A DNA stretch of 52,256 bases from positions 1-52,256 of the forward strand of contig SYMW01000008.1 in NCBI GenBank assembly GCA_005805305.1. Direction: 5' to 3'. Origin of the DNA: Verrucomicrobiales bacterium (GTDB lineage: Bacteria; Verrucomicrobiota; Verrucomicrobiia; Limisphaerales; F1-80-MAGS106). Position 1 is the stretch's first letter; the number at the start of each line of letters is the position of its first letter. Under the pieces are notes generated by a model, which saw nothing but the letters and a program-made list of their open reading frames with translations, made no database searches and had not been told where the DNA came from. Positions 2,170-52,256 of this stretch are shown here, one piece after another. The position numbers and the translations under genes were made by a program.

Positions 2170-5100
2170 CTATTCTCGAGTCACCGTTTCATCCAGGTTC
2201 AAGATCACATTCGCGACGCCCGTCCACGCCGCCAATTCGCCCCGGTCGAACTGGCCCGAGACGCTGGCCCGGCCCAGTTTCAAGATATCCCCCGCCGCAG
2301 TCTCATCCGCCGCATAACTCCTTCGCACATCACTCAAGACCCCCTCCAGAATCTTTTCCTCGTGAGGTCCGGGAGGCCTGCCCAAGGCGGCTCTGAGAGC
2401 AAATTTGAGCCGCGAAGCGGTGTCCGATCCGCCTTCGCGGAAGATTCTCTGGGCGAACACGCGAGCGGCTTCCACGAAGGTCACGTCGTTCATCGTGACC
2501 AATGCCTGCAGGGGCGTGCAAGTGGTGGGCCGGCTCACAGAGCAAATCGCGCGATCCGGGGCGTCGAAAGTTTGCATGGTGGGATTCAGGATCGAACGTT
2601 TCCACAGCGTGTAAAGGCTGCGGCGATAGAGTTCATCGCCACTGCCCAGTTCGTATTTGTTCCCGGCGAACATTTTTTCTTCCCATAAACCGGGAGGCTG
2701 GTAGGGACGCACGCTGGGGCCGCCTATTTTCTCGACCAACAGACCGCTGATCGCCAGCGCGTTGTCGCGCACCATCTCGGCGGGCAACCGGAACCGCGCA
2801 CCCCGCGCCATGAGACGGTTCTCGGGATCTTTGGTGATGTGGTCGGGGCGGACCTTTGAAGACTGCCTGTAGGTGGCGCTCATCAGCACTTCCTTGATGA
2901 ACCCTTTCACGTTCCAGCCGCTGTCGACAAACTCGCGCGCCAGATAATCGAGAAGCTCGGGGTGCGACGGCGGCTCGCCCTGCGTGCCGAACTCGTTAGC
3001 CGTGTTCACGATCGGGCGCTGAAAAAAGAGCGCCCAAAACCGGTTCACCGCCACTCTGGACGTCAAGGGATGGTTGCGTTGCACCAGCCACTCGGCAAGC
3101 GCGAGGCGGTTGGTGCGTCCGACCGCTTGCATCGGGGGCAGAGCGCTCGTGGGCACTCCGGCGGAAACCACTTCGCCTTTGGTCCGATAATCACCCCGCA
3201 CCCGAATATAGCTCTCTCTCGGCTTCGGCATGTCCTCCATCACTCGGATCGTGGCGATCGATTTGTCGATGTCCGACTCCTGCTTCCTCAACGCCGCTAA
3301 TTCCTCCGCGAGTTTCTTGATTTCCGGGATCTCGCGTTCGCGATAGGCCTGCTTCAACTCGGCCAGTTGCTCCGGCTTTCTCTTTTCCTGGGAGATCTTG
3401 GCCAATTCCCGAAGCTTGATGATTTTCTCATCCCCGGCCTCCTTGTCTGTGGAGAAGTAATAAGCATACGCGCCGCCGTAGTTCACCACTTTCAGCAACA
3501 GCCGATTGTGCCCCGCCTCCAGGGTCACTTCCACGGTGTCCTGATTCGCGGCCACCCCTCGATTGATATCCTTTGAGATTACTTCCTTCCCATTCAGCCA
3601 GACGCGGAGGGCGTCGTCGCTACCCAGATAAAGAACGAGTGGCTTCTGGCTCTCGGCCGTGATCGTTCTAAAAAGGTAGGTCGCGGCGTTGGATCCATTC
3701 AATTCCTGCGGCTTTCCGTCCTTCCATTTCGGCTGCTTTTTCCACTTGAGCTTCCCATCCGCGTAAGTCCGCGACGCGTCTGCGTCCGTCTCCGGCCCGA
3801 ATTCGGTCTTGAACGCTTCTCCTCCAGAGCCGGCTTCGAACGGGCCCACGCTGCTCCATTCGCCCAGCTTGAACCCTTCTGTGGCGGCCGCGGCATTCCT
3901 GAGCCTTTCCTCCCACAAAATCTGCGCCTGATCCCACTCAGGGCGGGCTAAATCGATTTGCGTTTTGTGCTCAGCTGCTTTGGCCGAAGCCTCATGTCTT
4001 GCTTTCTCCAACATCGCCGCCTGCCGCCCCACGGGGACTTTCACAAACGGGGGCGCGGGATCGGCGTCGAGCCCCTTCTCGGGAACTCGATTGAAGAAAT
4101 CGTAGAGCTCGTAATATTCACGCTGAGTGAAGGGGTCATATTTATGGTTGTGACACTCGGCGCACTGAATCGTGGAACCGAGGAAGACCGTCCCGAACGT
4201 GTTCACCCGATCCGTGACATACTTGTTCATGTATTCATCGGGATCGGCGCCGCCTTCGGTGCTCGACATGCCGTTGCGATTGAAAGCCGTTGCAATGCGC
4301 TGCTCAAGGGTGGGCTTCTCCAACAAATCCCCGGCGAGTTGCTCGACCACGAAACGATCGAAGGGCAGGTTCTTGTTGAACGCCCCAATCACATAATCCC
4401 GATACTGCCACATGGATCGTTGGATGTCGGCGTGATAACCATCGGAATCTGCAAATCGAGCTAAATCGAGCCATTGGATCGCCATGCGCTCCCCGAACTG
4501 TTCCGAGGCCAGGAGTTTGTCCAAAAGCTTTTCGTAAGCCTCCGGGCTCTTGTCCGACAGAAACCGATCCACCTCTTCAGCCGTGGGCGGCAACCCCGTC
4601 AAATCGAATGAAAGCCGCCGCGCCAAAGTGTGGCGATCAGCCTCCGGGGAAGGCGGAAGCTTTTCCTGCTCGAGCCTCGCGAGAACGAATCGGTCGATCT
4701 GCTTCCTCGGCCACGCCTCGTTTTTCACTGCAGGAACCGGCGGACGCTCGGGTGGCACATAAGCCCAGTGAGCCTCCCACTCGGCGCCTTCCTGAATCCA
4801 CCGGGTCAAGGTGTCGATTTGGGTCTTGTTCAACCGCCTCCCGGTTTTGGCGGGAGGCATCCGGTCGTCCGAATCCTCGGTCGCGGTCAAATGCAAGAGC
4901 CGGCTCTTGGCCGGATCCCCGGGCACAATCGCGAAATGACCTGACTCCAACTTGCTTGTTGCCCCGGCGCGTTCATCTAGCCGAAGCCCGGCCTTCCTCT
5001 TGGCTGTGTCCGGCCCATGACAATTGTAGCAATTATCGGCAAAGATGGGGCGGACATCCCGGTTGTAACTCACCTTGCCATGGGAACCGGCCCCCTGCCC

Positions 5101-6510: not shown

Positions 6511-7781
6511 GGCCTCTGGAGCATTCGAAGATACCATTTTACAAAGCCTTCCACATTGTATTCTTTGAAAGTTGAGTAGGGTCCTGGGGCATAGGCGGTG
6601 GAATTGATCCCTTTTTGCTGGCGTTCGCAGATCACCCAGTCCTGTTCGCTTGTCAGCTGCCAAAACGGCATGATGTCGGCAAGCTCGTAATCACGTCCCT
6701 CGACCGCGTTTTCATCCACCAGCCACGAAACACGAATCCTGGTCAGCCGAGGTCCCCCCGGCAGCAGCCGCGTGCTGACGCCGTGGTCGCAGCTTGAGTG
6801 GTTCCAAAAGTTGGGGAGCGCGCGTACGCGAACGGTGCCAACGTCCGGGTCACGATAGTCGCCCATCAGTGGCGCGACTTGTTTTCCGGTCATGCTCTCG
6901 CTCAGCCAGCCGTCCACGAGCGGGGTGCGGTTCGCGCTGAACCAAATCCCATTTTCGGCATCGGGAAAGGTCGTCATGCCCGGATCCCGATGAGTGCTTG
7001 CCAGCCCTTCGGAGGCCCACTTGTCCTCCCCGCGTCGAACCGCAGCCGCGATCTCGCTTCGGATGCGGGGCGTCGTGTCGTCCGCGTTATAATGGTCGAA
7101 ATTCGCCTTGATGTACTGGGGATGGTTCGCGTTGCAATGGAAACATTCCCGGTTGTTCTCCCACACGATCTTCCAGTTGGCTTGAACGAGGTAATCCACT
7201 GACTTGGCTACTTTAGCCCTCGCGAGTCCCTGAGGCCGCAGGATGGGTGAAAGACATTCCCGAGCCGGGTCGAAAGGAATCGGGTTAGAGGCCAGGTTGA
7301 TGAAGATAAGCCCTTCAACCTCGCGCACATGAACTGTTCGCAACGCAAAGTCGGCCTTGTTCAGTTCCGGTTGCATGCCGCGCCAACTGGAAAGGCGTCC
7401 GTCCAGAGCATACGACCACTGATGATAGGGACAGACGAGTTTTGAAACATGTCCGCAGGGTTCATCGCATATCAGAGAACCGCGGTGTCGGCAGACATTG
7501 TAAAGGCCGTGGATGACGCCCTCTTCCCCGCGGATGATCAATATGGAATCGGCATCCATTTCCACTAAAAAGTAATCGCCAGGACGTCGAATTTCACAAG
7601 TGTGCCCGGCAAACAGCCAGCCTTGCCTCCAAATACGGTCGAGATCGGCCTGGTAGACCGCAGCATCTCCATAGAATTGCTGTGGCATTGTCCATCCGTC
7701 ACGGCGGGAATCGATGAGAGGCGCCCATGGGTCTATTCCCCGTTTCGGCTCGATTGAAGGGCTGTGCAAATCTGATGGCAT
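6507..7781 (-). CDS. Rieske non-heme iron oxygenase alpha subunit, GbcA/Stc2-like (quaternary amine N-demethylase type)
   Basis: Rieske motif CRH-x17-CPYH, NWKIVWENNRECFHCNANH, and W..TSEQD..ICE typical of betaine/stachydrine demethylases. Confidence 0.85.
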   Translation of the reverse strand: MPSDLHSPSIEPKRGIDPWAPLIDSRRDGWTMPQQFYGDAAVYQADLDRIWRQGWLFAGHTCEIRRPGDYFLVEMDADSILIIRGEEGVIHGLYNVCRHRGSLICDEPCGHVSKLVCPYHQWSYALDGRLSSWRGMQPELNKADFALRTVHVREVEGLIFINLASNPIPFDPARECLSPILRPQGLARAKVAKSVDYLVQANWKIVWENNRECFHCNANHPQYIKANFDHYNADDTTPRIRSEIAAAVRRGEDKWASEGLASTHRDPGMTTFPDAENGIWFSANRTPLVDGWLSESMTGKQVAPLMGDYRDPDVGTVRVRALPNFWNHSSCDHGVSTRLLPGGPRLTRIRVSWLVDENAVEGRDYELADIMPFWQLTSEQDWVICERQQKGINSTAYAPGPYSTFKEYNVEGFVKWYLRMLQRP

Positions 7782-10964: not shown

Positions 10965-11900
10965 ATGAAAACGCGCTTCCGACTCCTCCCCACACTCTCC
11001 ATGATCGCCCTCCTGGTCTTCATCACCGGAGGTCGAACACAAGCCGCCAATGCCGAAAGGCGCGAGCACAAAGAACTCCCCGTCGCCAAAGCAGGCACCC
11101 TGACATTCAAGGCCATGGTCGGTTCGATCGAAATCAGAACCGCCAATCAGGAGCAAGTAACCTTCGACTCGGTTATCAAACGTGGAGGATGGGGGCTCAG
11201 CCTTCCGAGCGATTTGATCGAGTTGGTTGAGTTCCATTACGAAACCTCCGGAGCGGATGCAAAAATCGAGGTGAAGTGGAAAGCCAACCGAGGTCCTCGA
11301 TTCTCAAACTTGAACGTCCGGCACACACTGATCGTCCCGACCCATTACAATGTTGATGTCAGCACCGCGGGAGGCAGCATCCAATCGGACAACATCGGCG
11401 GCAACGTCGTAGCGGCCACATCGGGTGGGCGAATTCAACTGTCGAAAGTCGGCGGCCAAGTGAAAGCTCGGACCAGCGGTGGCAGCATCGCCTTGGAGAA
11501 GGCTCTCGGGGACGCCGACTTGAGAACCTCAGGTGGCAGCATCAAAGTGGGACTGGTCGATGGCCGCGTGAATGCTTCAACTTCTGGCGGCAGCATCTCC
11601 GTGGAAGGCGCCAAGGGGAATCTGCGCGCAAGAACTTCTGGAGGCTCCGTCAGCGCGTCGGTTGCCAGTCAAATCAATTCCCCTCTCGAACTCAGCACGT
11701 CAGGGGGAAGCATCCGCCTGACGGTGCCCTCGGATTTCCGAGCTGATTTGGACGCCAGCACTTCCGGAGGCGGCGTGTCCTGCGACCTGCCGGTCGATGG
11801 CTCTGTGAAACGAAACTTCATTCGCGGCAAGCTCAACGGCGGCGGGCCCCAAGTCACGCTCAGAACATCGGGAGGGAGTGTCCGGGTTTCGACACACTGA
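10965..11900 (+). CDS. DUF4097 / adhesin-like beta-strand repeat protein, secreted
   Basis: Signal peptide, many TSGGS(I/V) repeats, C-terminal GKLNGGGP. Confidence 0.85.
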   Translation: MKTRFRLLPTLSMIALLVFITGGRTQAANAERREHKELPVAKAGTLTFKAMVGSIEIRTANQEQVTFDSVIKRGGWGLSLPSDLIELVEFHYETSGADAKIEVKWKANRGPRFSNLNVRHTLIVPTHYNVDVSTAGGSIQSDNIGGNVVAATSGGRIQLSKVGGQVKARTSGGSIALEKALGDADLRTSGGSIKVGLVDGRVNASTSGGSISVEGAKGNLRARTSGGSVSASVASQINSPLELSTSGGSIRLTVPSDFRADLDASTSGGGVSCDLPVDGSVKRNFIRGKLNGGGPQVTLRTSGGSVRVSTH

Positions 11901-49901: not shown

Positions 49902-51221
49902 TCAATGCGCGGGCGCCGAACCTCCTCCGGCGGCTTGGGGCGCCTTCTTGGAAGGCGGATGGAAAAACAGCGCCAGCGCGATCGCCGCGATGAGAGCCGT
50001 CGCACAGGGCAGGAGGAACAATCCCTTAAAATCCGTGACGCCGTTTGTGGTGAACATATTTTGCAGCAACCACGGACAAATGGAATTAGCCACCAGCGCC
50101 CCGACCCCCAAAATCATGACGTTAAACAGCCCCTGCGCGCTCGAACGCACGTCCTTGGGAAAGTGTTCGTCCACGAAGATGTACACCGTGGCAAAGAAGA
50201 AGGCGTAACAAATTCCGTGAAGGACGTTCACCAGGACGATGAGCGCTTTGTGCTCGGGGAGAAACGCGAACACGGCAAACCTGCCCGCATGCCCCAGGAT
50301 CCCAATGACCATCGTCTTCTTCCAACCAAGCGCCTTCAGGCAGGCGCCCAGGACGAACATGGTCGCAATTTCAGCCAGTTGTCCGATGCTCATGACGGGC
50401 ATGATCCAGTTGCCGGGAATCCCCACTTGCGCACTCCCCAGAAAAGTGCCAGTCCAGTTAAAATAGCAGTTGTGGACGAAGGCATCCACGAACGTAATGA
50501 TCCATAGAATGAGGACGAAGGGATGCTTCAACAGCCGCGTCGCCTCAAGCCAAGCCAGGCTTTCCGACCCCTTCGAAGCCGGCTTCGGCGGAGTGTGCGG
50601 CAGGATCAAACTGAAGAGCGCCAGCAGAATGGAGGCAACTCCCGCGACGATGAACGTCCATTTCGTTGCCTGTTGCAATGCGGGCCCGGTCAATCCGGAA
50701 GCCAGCACGGTTCCAAGCCATTCGACGAACCCATTCGGATTCGCGGCATTCACTTTTCCCCAGTCAACGAGAATAAAAGTGAACGGCCAGGCAGCCAATA
50801 TCCATCCGATCGTGCCTCCCATGCGGATAATCCCGAATTCGTTCTGGGGATCCTTCATGTTCGCGAACGCAATCGAATTAGTGATGGAAATCGTGGGCAC
50901 GTAAAGGAGGCAGTGGACAAGCATGAGCAGGAAGAATGGCCAAAATGTATTGACGAAGCCCAATCCGAGCATTGCCACGCCTCCCACCAAATGGCTGAAA
51001 GCGAGGAACTTCTCAGCCGCGAAATTTCGATCCGCGAACTGGTTGCTGAAAAACATGCCCACGATGGCGGCGACGGGAAAAGCGTTCAAAATGAATGCCT
51101 GTTCCGTCGGCGAGAACCCCAAGCTCGGCAAGTAGCCGAAAATAAGGGGCAGCCAAGCGCCCCAAATAAAAAACTCCAGGACCATCATGAGGAAAAGCTT
51201 CAGTCGAATAGTTTGATTCAT
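49902..51221 (-). CDS. MFS transporter, nucleoside:H+ symporter (NupG-like)
   Basis: LEFFIWGAW, ADRNF, RMGGTIGW, GQLAE, LHGICYAF and SAQGL motifs. Confidence 0.88.
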   Translation of the reverse strand: MNQTIRLKLFLMMVLEFFIWGAWLPLIFGYLPSLGFSPTEQAFILNAFPVAAIVGMFFSNQFADRNFAAEKFLAFSHLVGGVAMLGLGFVNTFWPFFLLMLVHCLLYVPTISITNSIAFANMKDPQNEFGIIRMGGTIGWILAAWPFTFILVDWGKVNAANPNGFVEWLGTVLASGLTGPALQQATKWTFIVAGVASILLALFSLILPHTPPKPASKGSESLAWLEATRLLKHPFVLILWIITFVDAFVHNCYFNWTGTFLGSAQVGIPGNWIMPVMSIGQLAEIATMFVLGACLKALGWKKTMVIGILGHAGRFAVFAFLPEHKALIVLVNVLHGICYAFFFATVYIFVDEHFPKDVRSSAQGLFNVMILGVGALVANSICPWLLQNMFTTNGVTDFKGLFLLPCATALIAAIALALFFHPPSKKAPQAAGGGSAPAH

Positions 51222-51293
51222 AGGCTGTGGGCGCATGCTAGTGGACTTCGCCCCAGGGAGGCAAGACAGGAACTCACGACGCTGCGCGGGGCA

Positions 51294-51450
51294 GTGCATC
51301 CGCAGGTTGACGGTGAATTTGGCTGGCAGCCCGGAGCGCGGTTGTGTGCGAGGCACCAGCCGCAGCAGGTTTGGCGTGATAGCGAGCCTGAGATGCTGCT
51401 GCGACTGGCTTTCAGCACAGTCGCGCTCCACCGACAACTCGCGGATGCAC
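51294..51450. repeat. Nested palindromic element: 22-bp outer inverted repeats enclosing a REP/REPIN-like doublet
   Basis: Outer gtgcatccgcaggttgacggtg / caccgacaactcgcggatgcac. Inner ggagcgcggttgtg / cacagtcgcgctcc and cagccgcagcag / ctgctgcgactg. Confidence 0.8.
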
Positions 51451-51730
51451 CATGCGCGGGGTTCCGCTCGTGAAAGCACCGGCGAACCATCCCCGAAGGC
51501 TCAAGGCTGGCTCTTTGGGAAACAACCGCCTGGTGTTGCGTATCGCGGAGAATCCGGGGAAGTTTATACAGAAATCTGCGGAGATTGAGTATGGGTCGAA
51601 GGGAGTGGCGTTGGATTTTTCGCGCTGAACAGCTCCGTCAGAAGCGTTGGCCGCGCGACAGTGGGGCCGCCCCAATTTCTTTGCTGCTAAGGAGGGCTCA
51701 AAGTTCTCCGACCGCCCGTTCAACCTTGGA

Positions 51731-51892
51731 CCTTAAAACGGCAGCTGAACCCATTGAAGATGCGCAACAGCCTGGATGACAAAGGCTTGAGGAAGAGGGA
51801 GGCATATCCCTTGTGGATCTGGCGAGTGATTCGGAAAGATTTTATCGCCAGGATCTTGCGAAGATTCACCATGGGCAACTGCCGTTTTATGG
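51731..51892 (+). mobile_element. 162-bp MITE-like palindromic repeat, copy 4
   Basis: ccttaaaacggcagctg ... caactgccgttttatgg. Ungapped alignment to copy 3, about 86% identical by hand count. Confidence 0.85.
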
Positions 51893-52116
51893 TTGGAGGC
51901 TCTGCCTCCTTGTGCTGCCGGTTGGGATGTTGCCAGCCCCAACCAGAGTTCTCCCAGCTTACCTTCGTTTCCCGTCCCGTCGTGTCACCCTCGCTAACCC
52001 CGCCGGAATCAACAGCGCCAAGGCGACGATTTGATGACGATGCGTGGCTGCCTTCGCCGTCTAGGTGGCGGCTTGGCTTACCGGATCTAGCCATTTCGAG
52101 TTTGAAATGGTGATGT

Positions 52117-52137
52117 TGCATCCGCGAGTTGTCGGTG
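52117..52137 (-). repeat. Third copy of the 21-bp repeat arm, forming the 3' exon of the intron
   Basis: tgcatccgcgagttgtcggtg is the exact reverse complement of 51429-51449. Confidence 0.9.
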
Positions 52138-52256
52138 ATCGGGTCGGGTGCCGGGGATTGCGCCCCGGCACCCTCCCACACCACCGTACGTGCGGTTTTC
52201 CGCATACGGCGGTTGAACGATGCAGCCCTGTTTACATGGTGGCTGCTAGGTCTGAC
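52138..52256 (-). mobile_element. 3' end (domains V and VI) of a group II intron, class C-like; continues beyond the window
   Basis: Minus strand reads aaccgccgtatgcggaaaaccgcacgtacggtggtgtgggagg (DV, CGC triad), then gtgccgggg-cgcaat-ccccggcac-ccgacccgAT (DVI and 3' AY end). A possible ORF end ...SDLAATM* lies just upstream. Confidence 0.88.

Follow-up and report, generated by a model that had tools for sequence, protein, structure and literature searches.

Reviews of bacterial group II introns describe three target specificities, namely homing sites, terminators and attC sites, and for class C (IIC) introns name terminators and attC, at least in the sections cited here (PMC4424553). According to the same sections, class C RTs lack an endonuclease domain, and the traits listed for the class by Toor 2006, in the portion of that paper drawn on here (PMC1702495), include a domain V CGC in place of AGC and an 11-nt AGGAA bulge. 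In Pseudomonas putida KT2440, a group II intron lies at REP sequences in two of nine copies, with no mechanism given in the table cited (Tobes and Pareja 2006, PMC1525189). No description of a IIC intron homing into a MITE was found in the open-access literature searched. Here we describe a locus at which, with a probability that we put at roughly 0.88, a IIC intron retrohomes into a hairpin-GCTC-C motif carried by a 161-bp MITE.

The window, that is, the whole stretch of 52,256 nt analyzed, is an entire contig (C297), one of the 319 contigs of genome bin G000. The bin is a fragmented assembly, 82% complete and with no contigs shorter than 2.5 kb, and counts reported below are drawn from such data. 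The window contains one empty MITE and one occupied MITE, the latter extending outward from 52137 (Table 1). The first-pass annotation had placed the end of an intron, ...cccgAT, at 52138 on the minus strand, followed by a 21-mer identical to one at a second site, and both statements were borne out. Rfam RF00029 (domains V-VI) matched 52138-52214 (minus strand) with 47.4 bits (gathering score 40), and the 21-mer CACCGACAACTCGCGGATGCA was exact at 51429-51449 (plus) and 52117-52137 (minus), with no match in any of 100 shuffles. A further copy with three mismatches at 51295-51315 (minus) is the opposite arm of the repeat, and the sequence upstream of the 21-mer, at 51420-51428, reads ...GTCGCGCTC. 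In the occupied copy, the arm is followed by ACA (the usual trinucleotide is CCA). The stop codon of the intron RT frame is at 52234-52232 (minus), and the intron end in the window was 99-100% identical to approximately 19 further intron ends in the bin.

Table 1. Coordinates of the features in the window (positions of the 52,256-nt stretch).
Feature	Position	Strand	Remarks
Target-site duplication TGCGCGGGG of the empty MITE, left copy	51283..51291		right copy 51453-51461; read directly from the sequence
Empty MITE copy ('rep'), 161 bp, intron-free	51292..51452	+	G000: 45 full-length copies; target duplications of 8-9 bp around most
MITE left terminal inverted repeat	51292..51316	+	3-mismatch inverted match to the 21-mer, 51295-51315
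Second potential target, opposite strand	51333..51363	-	hairpin A 51338-51363, GCTC 51337-51334, insertion point, C 51333
Hairpin B	51401..51424	+	GCGACTG-N10-CAGTCGC; directly upstream of the intron in 14/20 5' junctions
IBS1 GCTC	51425..51428	+	complementary to EBS1 loop GAGC; empty insertion point between 51428 and 51429
MITE right terminal inverted repeat	51429..51452	+	3' exon in occupied copies; putative IBS3 at its first base, C (51429)
Relic fragment of a different group II intron	51893..52098, continuing 51665-51730	-	88% and 82% identity to nt ~171-438 of the C286 intron of G000; context only
Second MITE-like repeat, unrelated, splitting the relic intron	51731..51892		~245 BLAST matches in G000; context only
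Target-site duplication TCACCATT of the occupied MITE	52106..52113	-	same 8-mer before the MITE left end in L042
Right arm of the occupied MITE, 3' exon of the intron	52114..52137	-	21-mer + ACA
IIC intron, 3'-terminal 119 nt	52138..52256	-	RT frame end, domain V, domain VI, ...CCCGAT

Between the two MITEs lie the relic intron and the second repeat. A weak Rfam RF02005 match in the window is due to the relic intron fragment. The second repeat, whose ends contain AAAACGGCAG(C/T)TG, is far commoner in the genome than the host repeat of the intron. Contig C286 (1-1859, minus strand; L001/L021) carries another, complete intron whose RT frame is open; it begins directly after the final 22 nt of an end of this second repeat, within the start of a BlaR1-like gene and downstream of a BlaI-like repressor gene; its RT scored 190 bits against a IIC RT and 157 bits against a IIB RT. 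This GIIM-bearing element was considered as the body of the window's intron and rejected as a different intron.

The host repeat was found in 45 full-length copies (87-100% identity) and, at contig ends, as 27 left and 13 right parts; roughly 75 or more copies are scattered through the genome, each a potential landing site. Contig ends each hold approximately 140 nt of the MITE, a length that would fit a 141-mer graph assembly. The arms (~24 bp) had 152 matches in the bin, mostly paired approximately 150-160 bp apart, and 8-9-bp direct repeats surround most of the listed full copies, as judged by eye with no full tally. Because of these terminal inverted repeats and target duplications, the element is classed as MITE-like rather than as a classical REP. 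This refines the earlier 'REP-like' label.

As single-stranded DNA, the whole MITE folds at -48 kcal/mol (z = -4.4), and one long hairpin is possible. The pairing ggagcgcg...cgcgctcc, previously taken for the hairpin at whose base the target lies, does exist, but it forms the outer stem that closes the palindromic element as a whole; hairpin B is the one that lies nearest to the site. The interior carries two related hairpins in inverted orientation, A and B, an inner pair that looks REPIN-like. Hairpin B folds at -11.3 kcal/mol (z = -3.4), with an extended stem ending 2 nt before the insertion site, and hairpin A folds more weakly (-9.3 kcal/mol, z = -0.8). No Rfam family matched the repeat. 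Nine PF01797 (Y1 transposase) matches in the bin might have indicated a RAYT link, but within 1.5 kb of them there was no motif of hairpin A, of hairpin B or of the arms. As for an autonomous partner, arms paired at a distance above 200 bp were found on no contig of the bin, which is 82% complete and in which multicopy elements are poorly assembled.

Two empty, diverged MITEs (C270, reverse strand 7214-7377; C284, reverse strand 5-168) have three additional bases, GAT, precisely where the intron inserts. Since GAT forms the last three bases of the intron, it may be the footprint of past occupation and imprecise intron loss.

The intron body is absent from the bin, and exact-overlap walking outward from the contig end of the window found nothing in this set without contigs under 2.5 kb. 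The full copy was taken from a contig that belongs to the same metagenome but to no bin, together with a public-run contig. An exact-pattern scan of the metagenome contigs for the intron yielded 13 contigs. One of them, L049, carries a copy of the intron that starts at 11780 and extends to the end of the locus (13645), its last 23 nt missing, with the MITE as 5' exon and an open frame for a 416-aa RT. A 2067-nt contig from run X3 joins window positions 52117-52256 to 51428-51368 (opposite strand), with 1889 nt of intron between. The intron runs from GTGTG to GAT, which agrees with the 5' GUGYG start and the 3' AY end of class C. The depth of intron contigs relative to unique flank in public runs was approximately 29-43 fold, which is a rough copy-number hint, as depths sum over organisms.

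The window itself shows only 119 nt of the intron, and it might accordingly hold a dead domain V-VI piece lying by chance beside a repeat arm. This is hardly conceivable given that the window is a whole contig ending inside a repeat and that L042, L049 and the X3 contig, the last spanning arm, intron and hairpin B, provide the remaining intron and the 5' exon. The short length is due to the assembly breaking inside a multicopy element and not to fragmentation of the intron; intron and MITE multicopy sites explain assembly breaks at such places in genomes of this kind.

The best solved relatives of the intron RT were all IIC: 6AR1, the GsI-IIC RT, with 504 bits (E 2e-150), followed by 7UIM (352), 5HHL (300) and 5HHJ (296), the E. 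rectale and R. intestinalis IIC RTs scoring 296-352 bits. The IIB (6ME0) and IIA (LtrA) RTs scored approximately 128 bits. The RT also matched TIGR04416 at 414 bits. The GsI-IIC RT is not known to have an endonuclease domain. The 416-aa RT aligns through residues 5-398 to the 428-aa GsI-IIC RT, and because this alignment leaves no space for an extra domain, the intron RT is predicted to lack the endonuclease as well. In domain V, AACCGCCGUAU aligns to the consensus gaGAGCCGUAU, with CGC instead of the AGC triad, and AGGAAUACGAA aligns to the unpaired 11-nt stretch of RF02001 (79.3 bits), that is, to the AGGAA bulge. With the best RT match to GsI-IIC, the domain V CGC, the bulge and a 4-nt EBS1 (see below), sequence comparison confirmed the earlier assignment to the bacterial class C (IIC) group II introns. 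Among RTs of named genomes, those of Verrucomicrobiota MAGs were closest (72-75% identity).

There were 20 distinct 3' junctions in the bin. Sixteen ran into the MITE arm, which carried the exact 21-mer in 13 cases and was an older variant in three, and four ran into other sequence; at least 16 MITE copies are occupied by the intron. The first base of the 3' exon, the candidate IBS3, was C in all 20 junctions, and beyond the MITE arm the flanks differed at every junction. The 20 distinct 5' junctions came from the bin and the metagenome contigs combined. Most of them (14) were located at hairpin B, and one (metagenome contig L040) at the hairpin-A site of another MITE copy, on the opposite strand; this single use of hairpin A is consistent with its weaker fold. 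In three others the hairpin was a related one, belonging to another palindromic repeat, and in the remaining two it was unrelated. By inspection, a hairpin was present 2-4 nt before the site in 20 of 20 contexts. The 5' exon ended in GCTC in 17 junctions and in GCTG, a mismatch to EBS1 at position -1, in the other three. The intron also uses unrelated hairpins that precede GCTC and C.

The junction ...CAGTCGCGCTC followed directly by GTGTGCTTGGCAGG was read in six contigs of the bin (C193, C170, C285, C282, C156 and C54) and in seven metagenome contigs (L037, L041, L042, L045, L046, L048 and L049). Insertion is exact, because empty copies read uninterrupted from ...CAGTCGCGCTC into CACCGAC.... 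Occupied MITEs were rebuilt across contigs by pairing the 8-9 nt that precede the left end with those that follow the right end; among 13 left flanks and 19 right ones this recovered eight copies, with approximately 0.01 chance matches expected by our own estimate. The window's occupied copy is one of the eight: its left flank is the metagenome contig L042, which reads 8-mer, MITE left end and then intron 5' end, the 8-bp duplication TCACCATT being common to both. In public-run contigs over 51200-52256 there was no intron-free allele at the occupied site, although contigs of this kind cannot show absence. The first-pass proposals that 51294-51450 is an unoccupied site and 52117 onward an occupied one, and that the intron homes into the repeat at the junction of hairpin and arm, were supported: the repeat hairpin was recovered as 5' exon in the 6 + 7 contigs above, the flanks of the other intron copies show the same repeat in 16/20 3' and 14/20 5' junctions, and the intron piece in the window is not a captured fragment.

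For the EBS1 search, domain I of the intron was aligned to that of 37 relatives in other genomes. A gap removed one of the 38 rows, and the poorly aligned L133 and L135 were retained, scoring 2 and 1. An 8-nt terminal loop in domain I holds four bases complementary to the final four bases of each intron's own 5' exon. Among the 37 related introns, all four positions paired in 23 and three of four in 12. Over 24 distinct EBS1/IBS1 pairs, 84 of 96 cells were paired (shuffle mean 51), a value reached by none of 10,000 shuffles. In the intron studied here the loop reads GAGC (L049, 11959-11962), complementary to IBS1 GCUC, and the resulting 4-bp pairing is within the short 3-4-bp range of class C. 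Another GAGC, within GUAGAGCAC, was rejected as EBS1; it is invariant in relatives with differing IBS1, and the covarying loop lies 40 nt upstream of it. Empty, occupied and off-family sites form a natural series that defines the target rule: a 7-bp hairpin stem, GCTC, the insertion point and then C.

These data suggest the following mechanism. A mobile 1889-nt IIC intron with an endonuclease-less 416-aa RT/maturase would retrohome into the MITE motif, where internal hairpin B meets the right terminal inverted repeat, with a weaker motif available at hairpin A on the other strand. EBS1 GAGC would pair with IBS1 GCTC, and C would serve as IBS3. If established IIC behavior applies, reverse splicing would take place into transiently single-stranded DNA, and cDNA synthesis would be primed by replication. 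Each dispersed MITE copy would then be a ready-made landing site.

The left parts of 13 occupied MITEs had pairwise identities of 90.5-100% (mean 95.4%, 78 pairs), and the 75 nt of intron adjoining them were 100% identical in 36 of 36 comparable pairs. Because the hosts differ by up to 9.5% and the adjoining intron ends are identical, the intron copies are younger than their host MITEs; members of old subfamilies, among them C170/C214, are occupied too. The relative youth of the intron, together with the off-MITE and opposite-strand insertions, points to separate, repeated retrohoming events.

The same comparison bears on composite transposition, in which a single intron entry would have been followed by multiplication of a 2.05-kb MITE+intron unit by the MITE's transposase, the junctions being inherited. 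Each of the rebuilt occupied copies is flanked by a target duplication of its own (8-9 bp), and 13 of 16 occupied arms are the exact arm of the young subfamily, as this explanation would have it; within that subfamily (~99% identical), homing is indistinguishable from transposition of an intron-bearing MITE. However, diverged subfamilies are also occupied, C170/C214 sharing approximately 90% identity with the master copy, and the intron, with identical ends, is also present at the variant arms of C214, C223 and C25. In addition, the intron lies outside the MITE at 4/20 3' and 5/20 5' junctions, one MITE insertion is on the opposite strand, all sites follow a hairpin and GCT(C/G), and no autonomous element with the MITE terminal repeats was found in the genome. 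Composite transposition is, in our judgment, improbable.

Slightly less probable still is spread by homologous recombination or gene conversion among MITE copies, in which the repeat would supply the homology arms and no reverse splicing would take place. The left part of the MITE, 137 nt long, does offer homology, and all MITE copies compared agree over the 30 nt that adjoin the junction, but the right arm supplies just 24 nt, and the insertions at non-MITE hairpins have only the GCTC-C motif in common. An open RT frame and an EBS1 that matches the site also argue against recombination.

Related introns and repeats were found in other genomes. A genome of a different family of the same order (G041) has a related intron, with 84% identity over the 3' 144 nt, and four of its five 3' exons end in a terminal repeat homologous to that of the MITE in our bin; this 3'-exon repeat occurs at least 37 further times without intron. 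In G041 a single 5' junction was found, located after a different hairpin of its MITE. The EBS1 of the G041 intron is UGGC, which would pair with the GCCA present in some empty copies; the occupied copy reads GCCC, giving three of four pairs. It is possible, if on balance doubtful, that a IIC lineage is dedicated to one MITE superfamily, with EBS1 retuned (GAGC vs. UGGC) to each MITE, the partnership being old and the MITE perhaps a vehicle to new loci and genomes. The basis for this suggestion is that the introns of both genomes are in MITEs with homologous terminal repeats. If it were true, the GAT remnants in two empty MITEs would be traces of past occupation.

In another family of the order (G007), the full MITE was present in at least 13 copies (88-91% identity); all 10 copies inspected had intact insertion sites, most had visible target duplications, and no intron match was found in this genome. 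Many genomes of the order carry the A/B module by itself, and altogether some match was present in 26 of the 61 genomes searched. The paired hairpin module GGAGCGCGGCTGTG...CACAGTCGCGCTCC shows 92-100% conservation over its many copies in different families of the order (G041, G008, G038, G042 and G051; L060-L065), where it sits inside different longer repeats.

A full relative of the intron was found in G049 behind a plain hairpin followed by GCTC and C. This complete genome of the same order also has intron relatives of approximately 620 nt without ORF (L034, ~3033-3652, contig C1, and three further copies). Bryobacterales MAGs (L113-L115 and L121; L116-L119) contain related IIC introns whose 5' exons are nearly alike between copies, and 3' exons partly so. 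Sequence evidence suggests that repeat-borne hairpin targets may occur in the Acidobacteriota too.

Approximately three quarters of at least 20 intron copies are in one repeat family. The case illustrates how a selfish element can find a renewable niche in another, and how introns can multiply by exploiting dispersed repeats. The terminator-type IIC introns (B.h.I1, GsI-IIC; PMC1702495; Robart 2007 and Mohr 2018 as cited in PMC7306698), as far as the cited sections describe them, are alike in the endonuclease-less RT, the domain V CGC and the AGGAA bulge, and share the 4-bp EBS1-IBS1 pairing, a 5'-exon stem-loop a few bases before the site, a one-base IBS3 (putative here) and many loci (PMC1702495, same sections). 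In contrast to their targets, the stem-loop here has no T run and so is not an intrinsic terminator; it is the internal hairpin of a transposon-like repeat. Terminator-type introns lie behind diverse genes, whereas 70-80% of the copies here are in one repeat family.

The IIC-attC introns (S.ma.I2; Zimmerly and Semper 2015, PMC4424553) are similar in that a IIC lineage inserts at a recurring, structured, non-terminator motif of another element; going by the cited part of that review, they differ in that the target here is a MITE hairpin, with no integron context seen. The P. putida KT2440 intron is likewise a group II intron at repeated extragenic palindromes, but, compared with what the cited part of that report gives (PMC1525189), 16 of 20 copies here share a single exact position, and this is accompanied by empty sites, target duplications and EBS1 pairing. 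In the nested introns of Methanosarcina acetivorans, with their 'perpetual homing site', a multicopy selfish element also supplies homing sites for an intron; there, in the description drawn on (PMC4424553), the host is another intron and homing is sequence-specific, whereas here the host is a DNA transposon derivative and the target a hairpin plus 4 nt. The system described here is known structure-based IIC targeting applied to a dispersed repeat, and as such a variant of known behavior and not a new kind of element.
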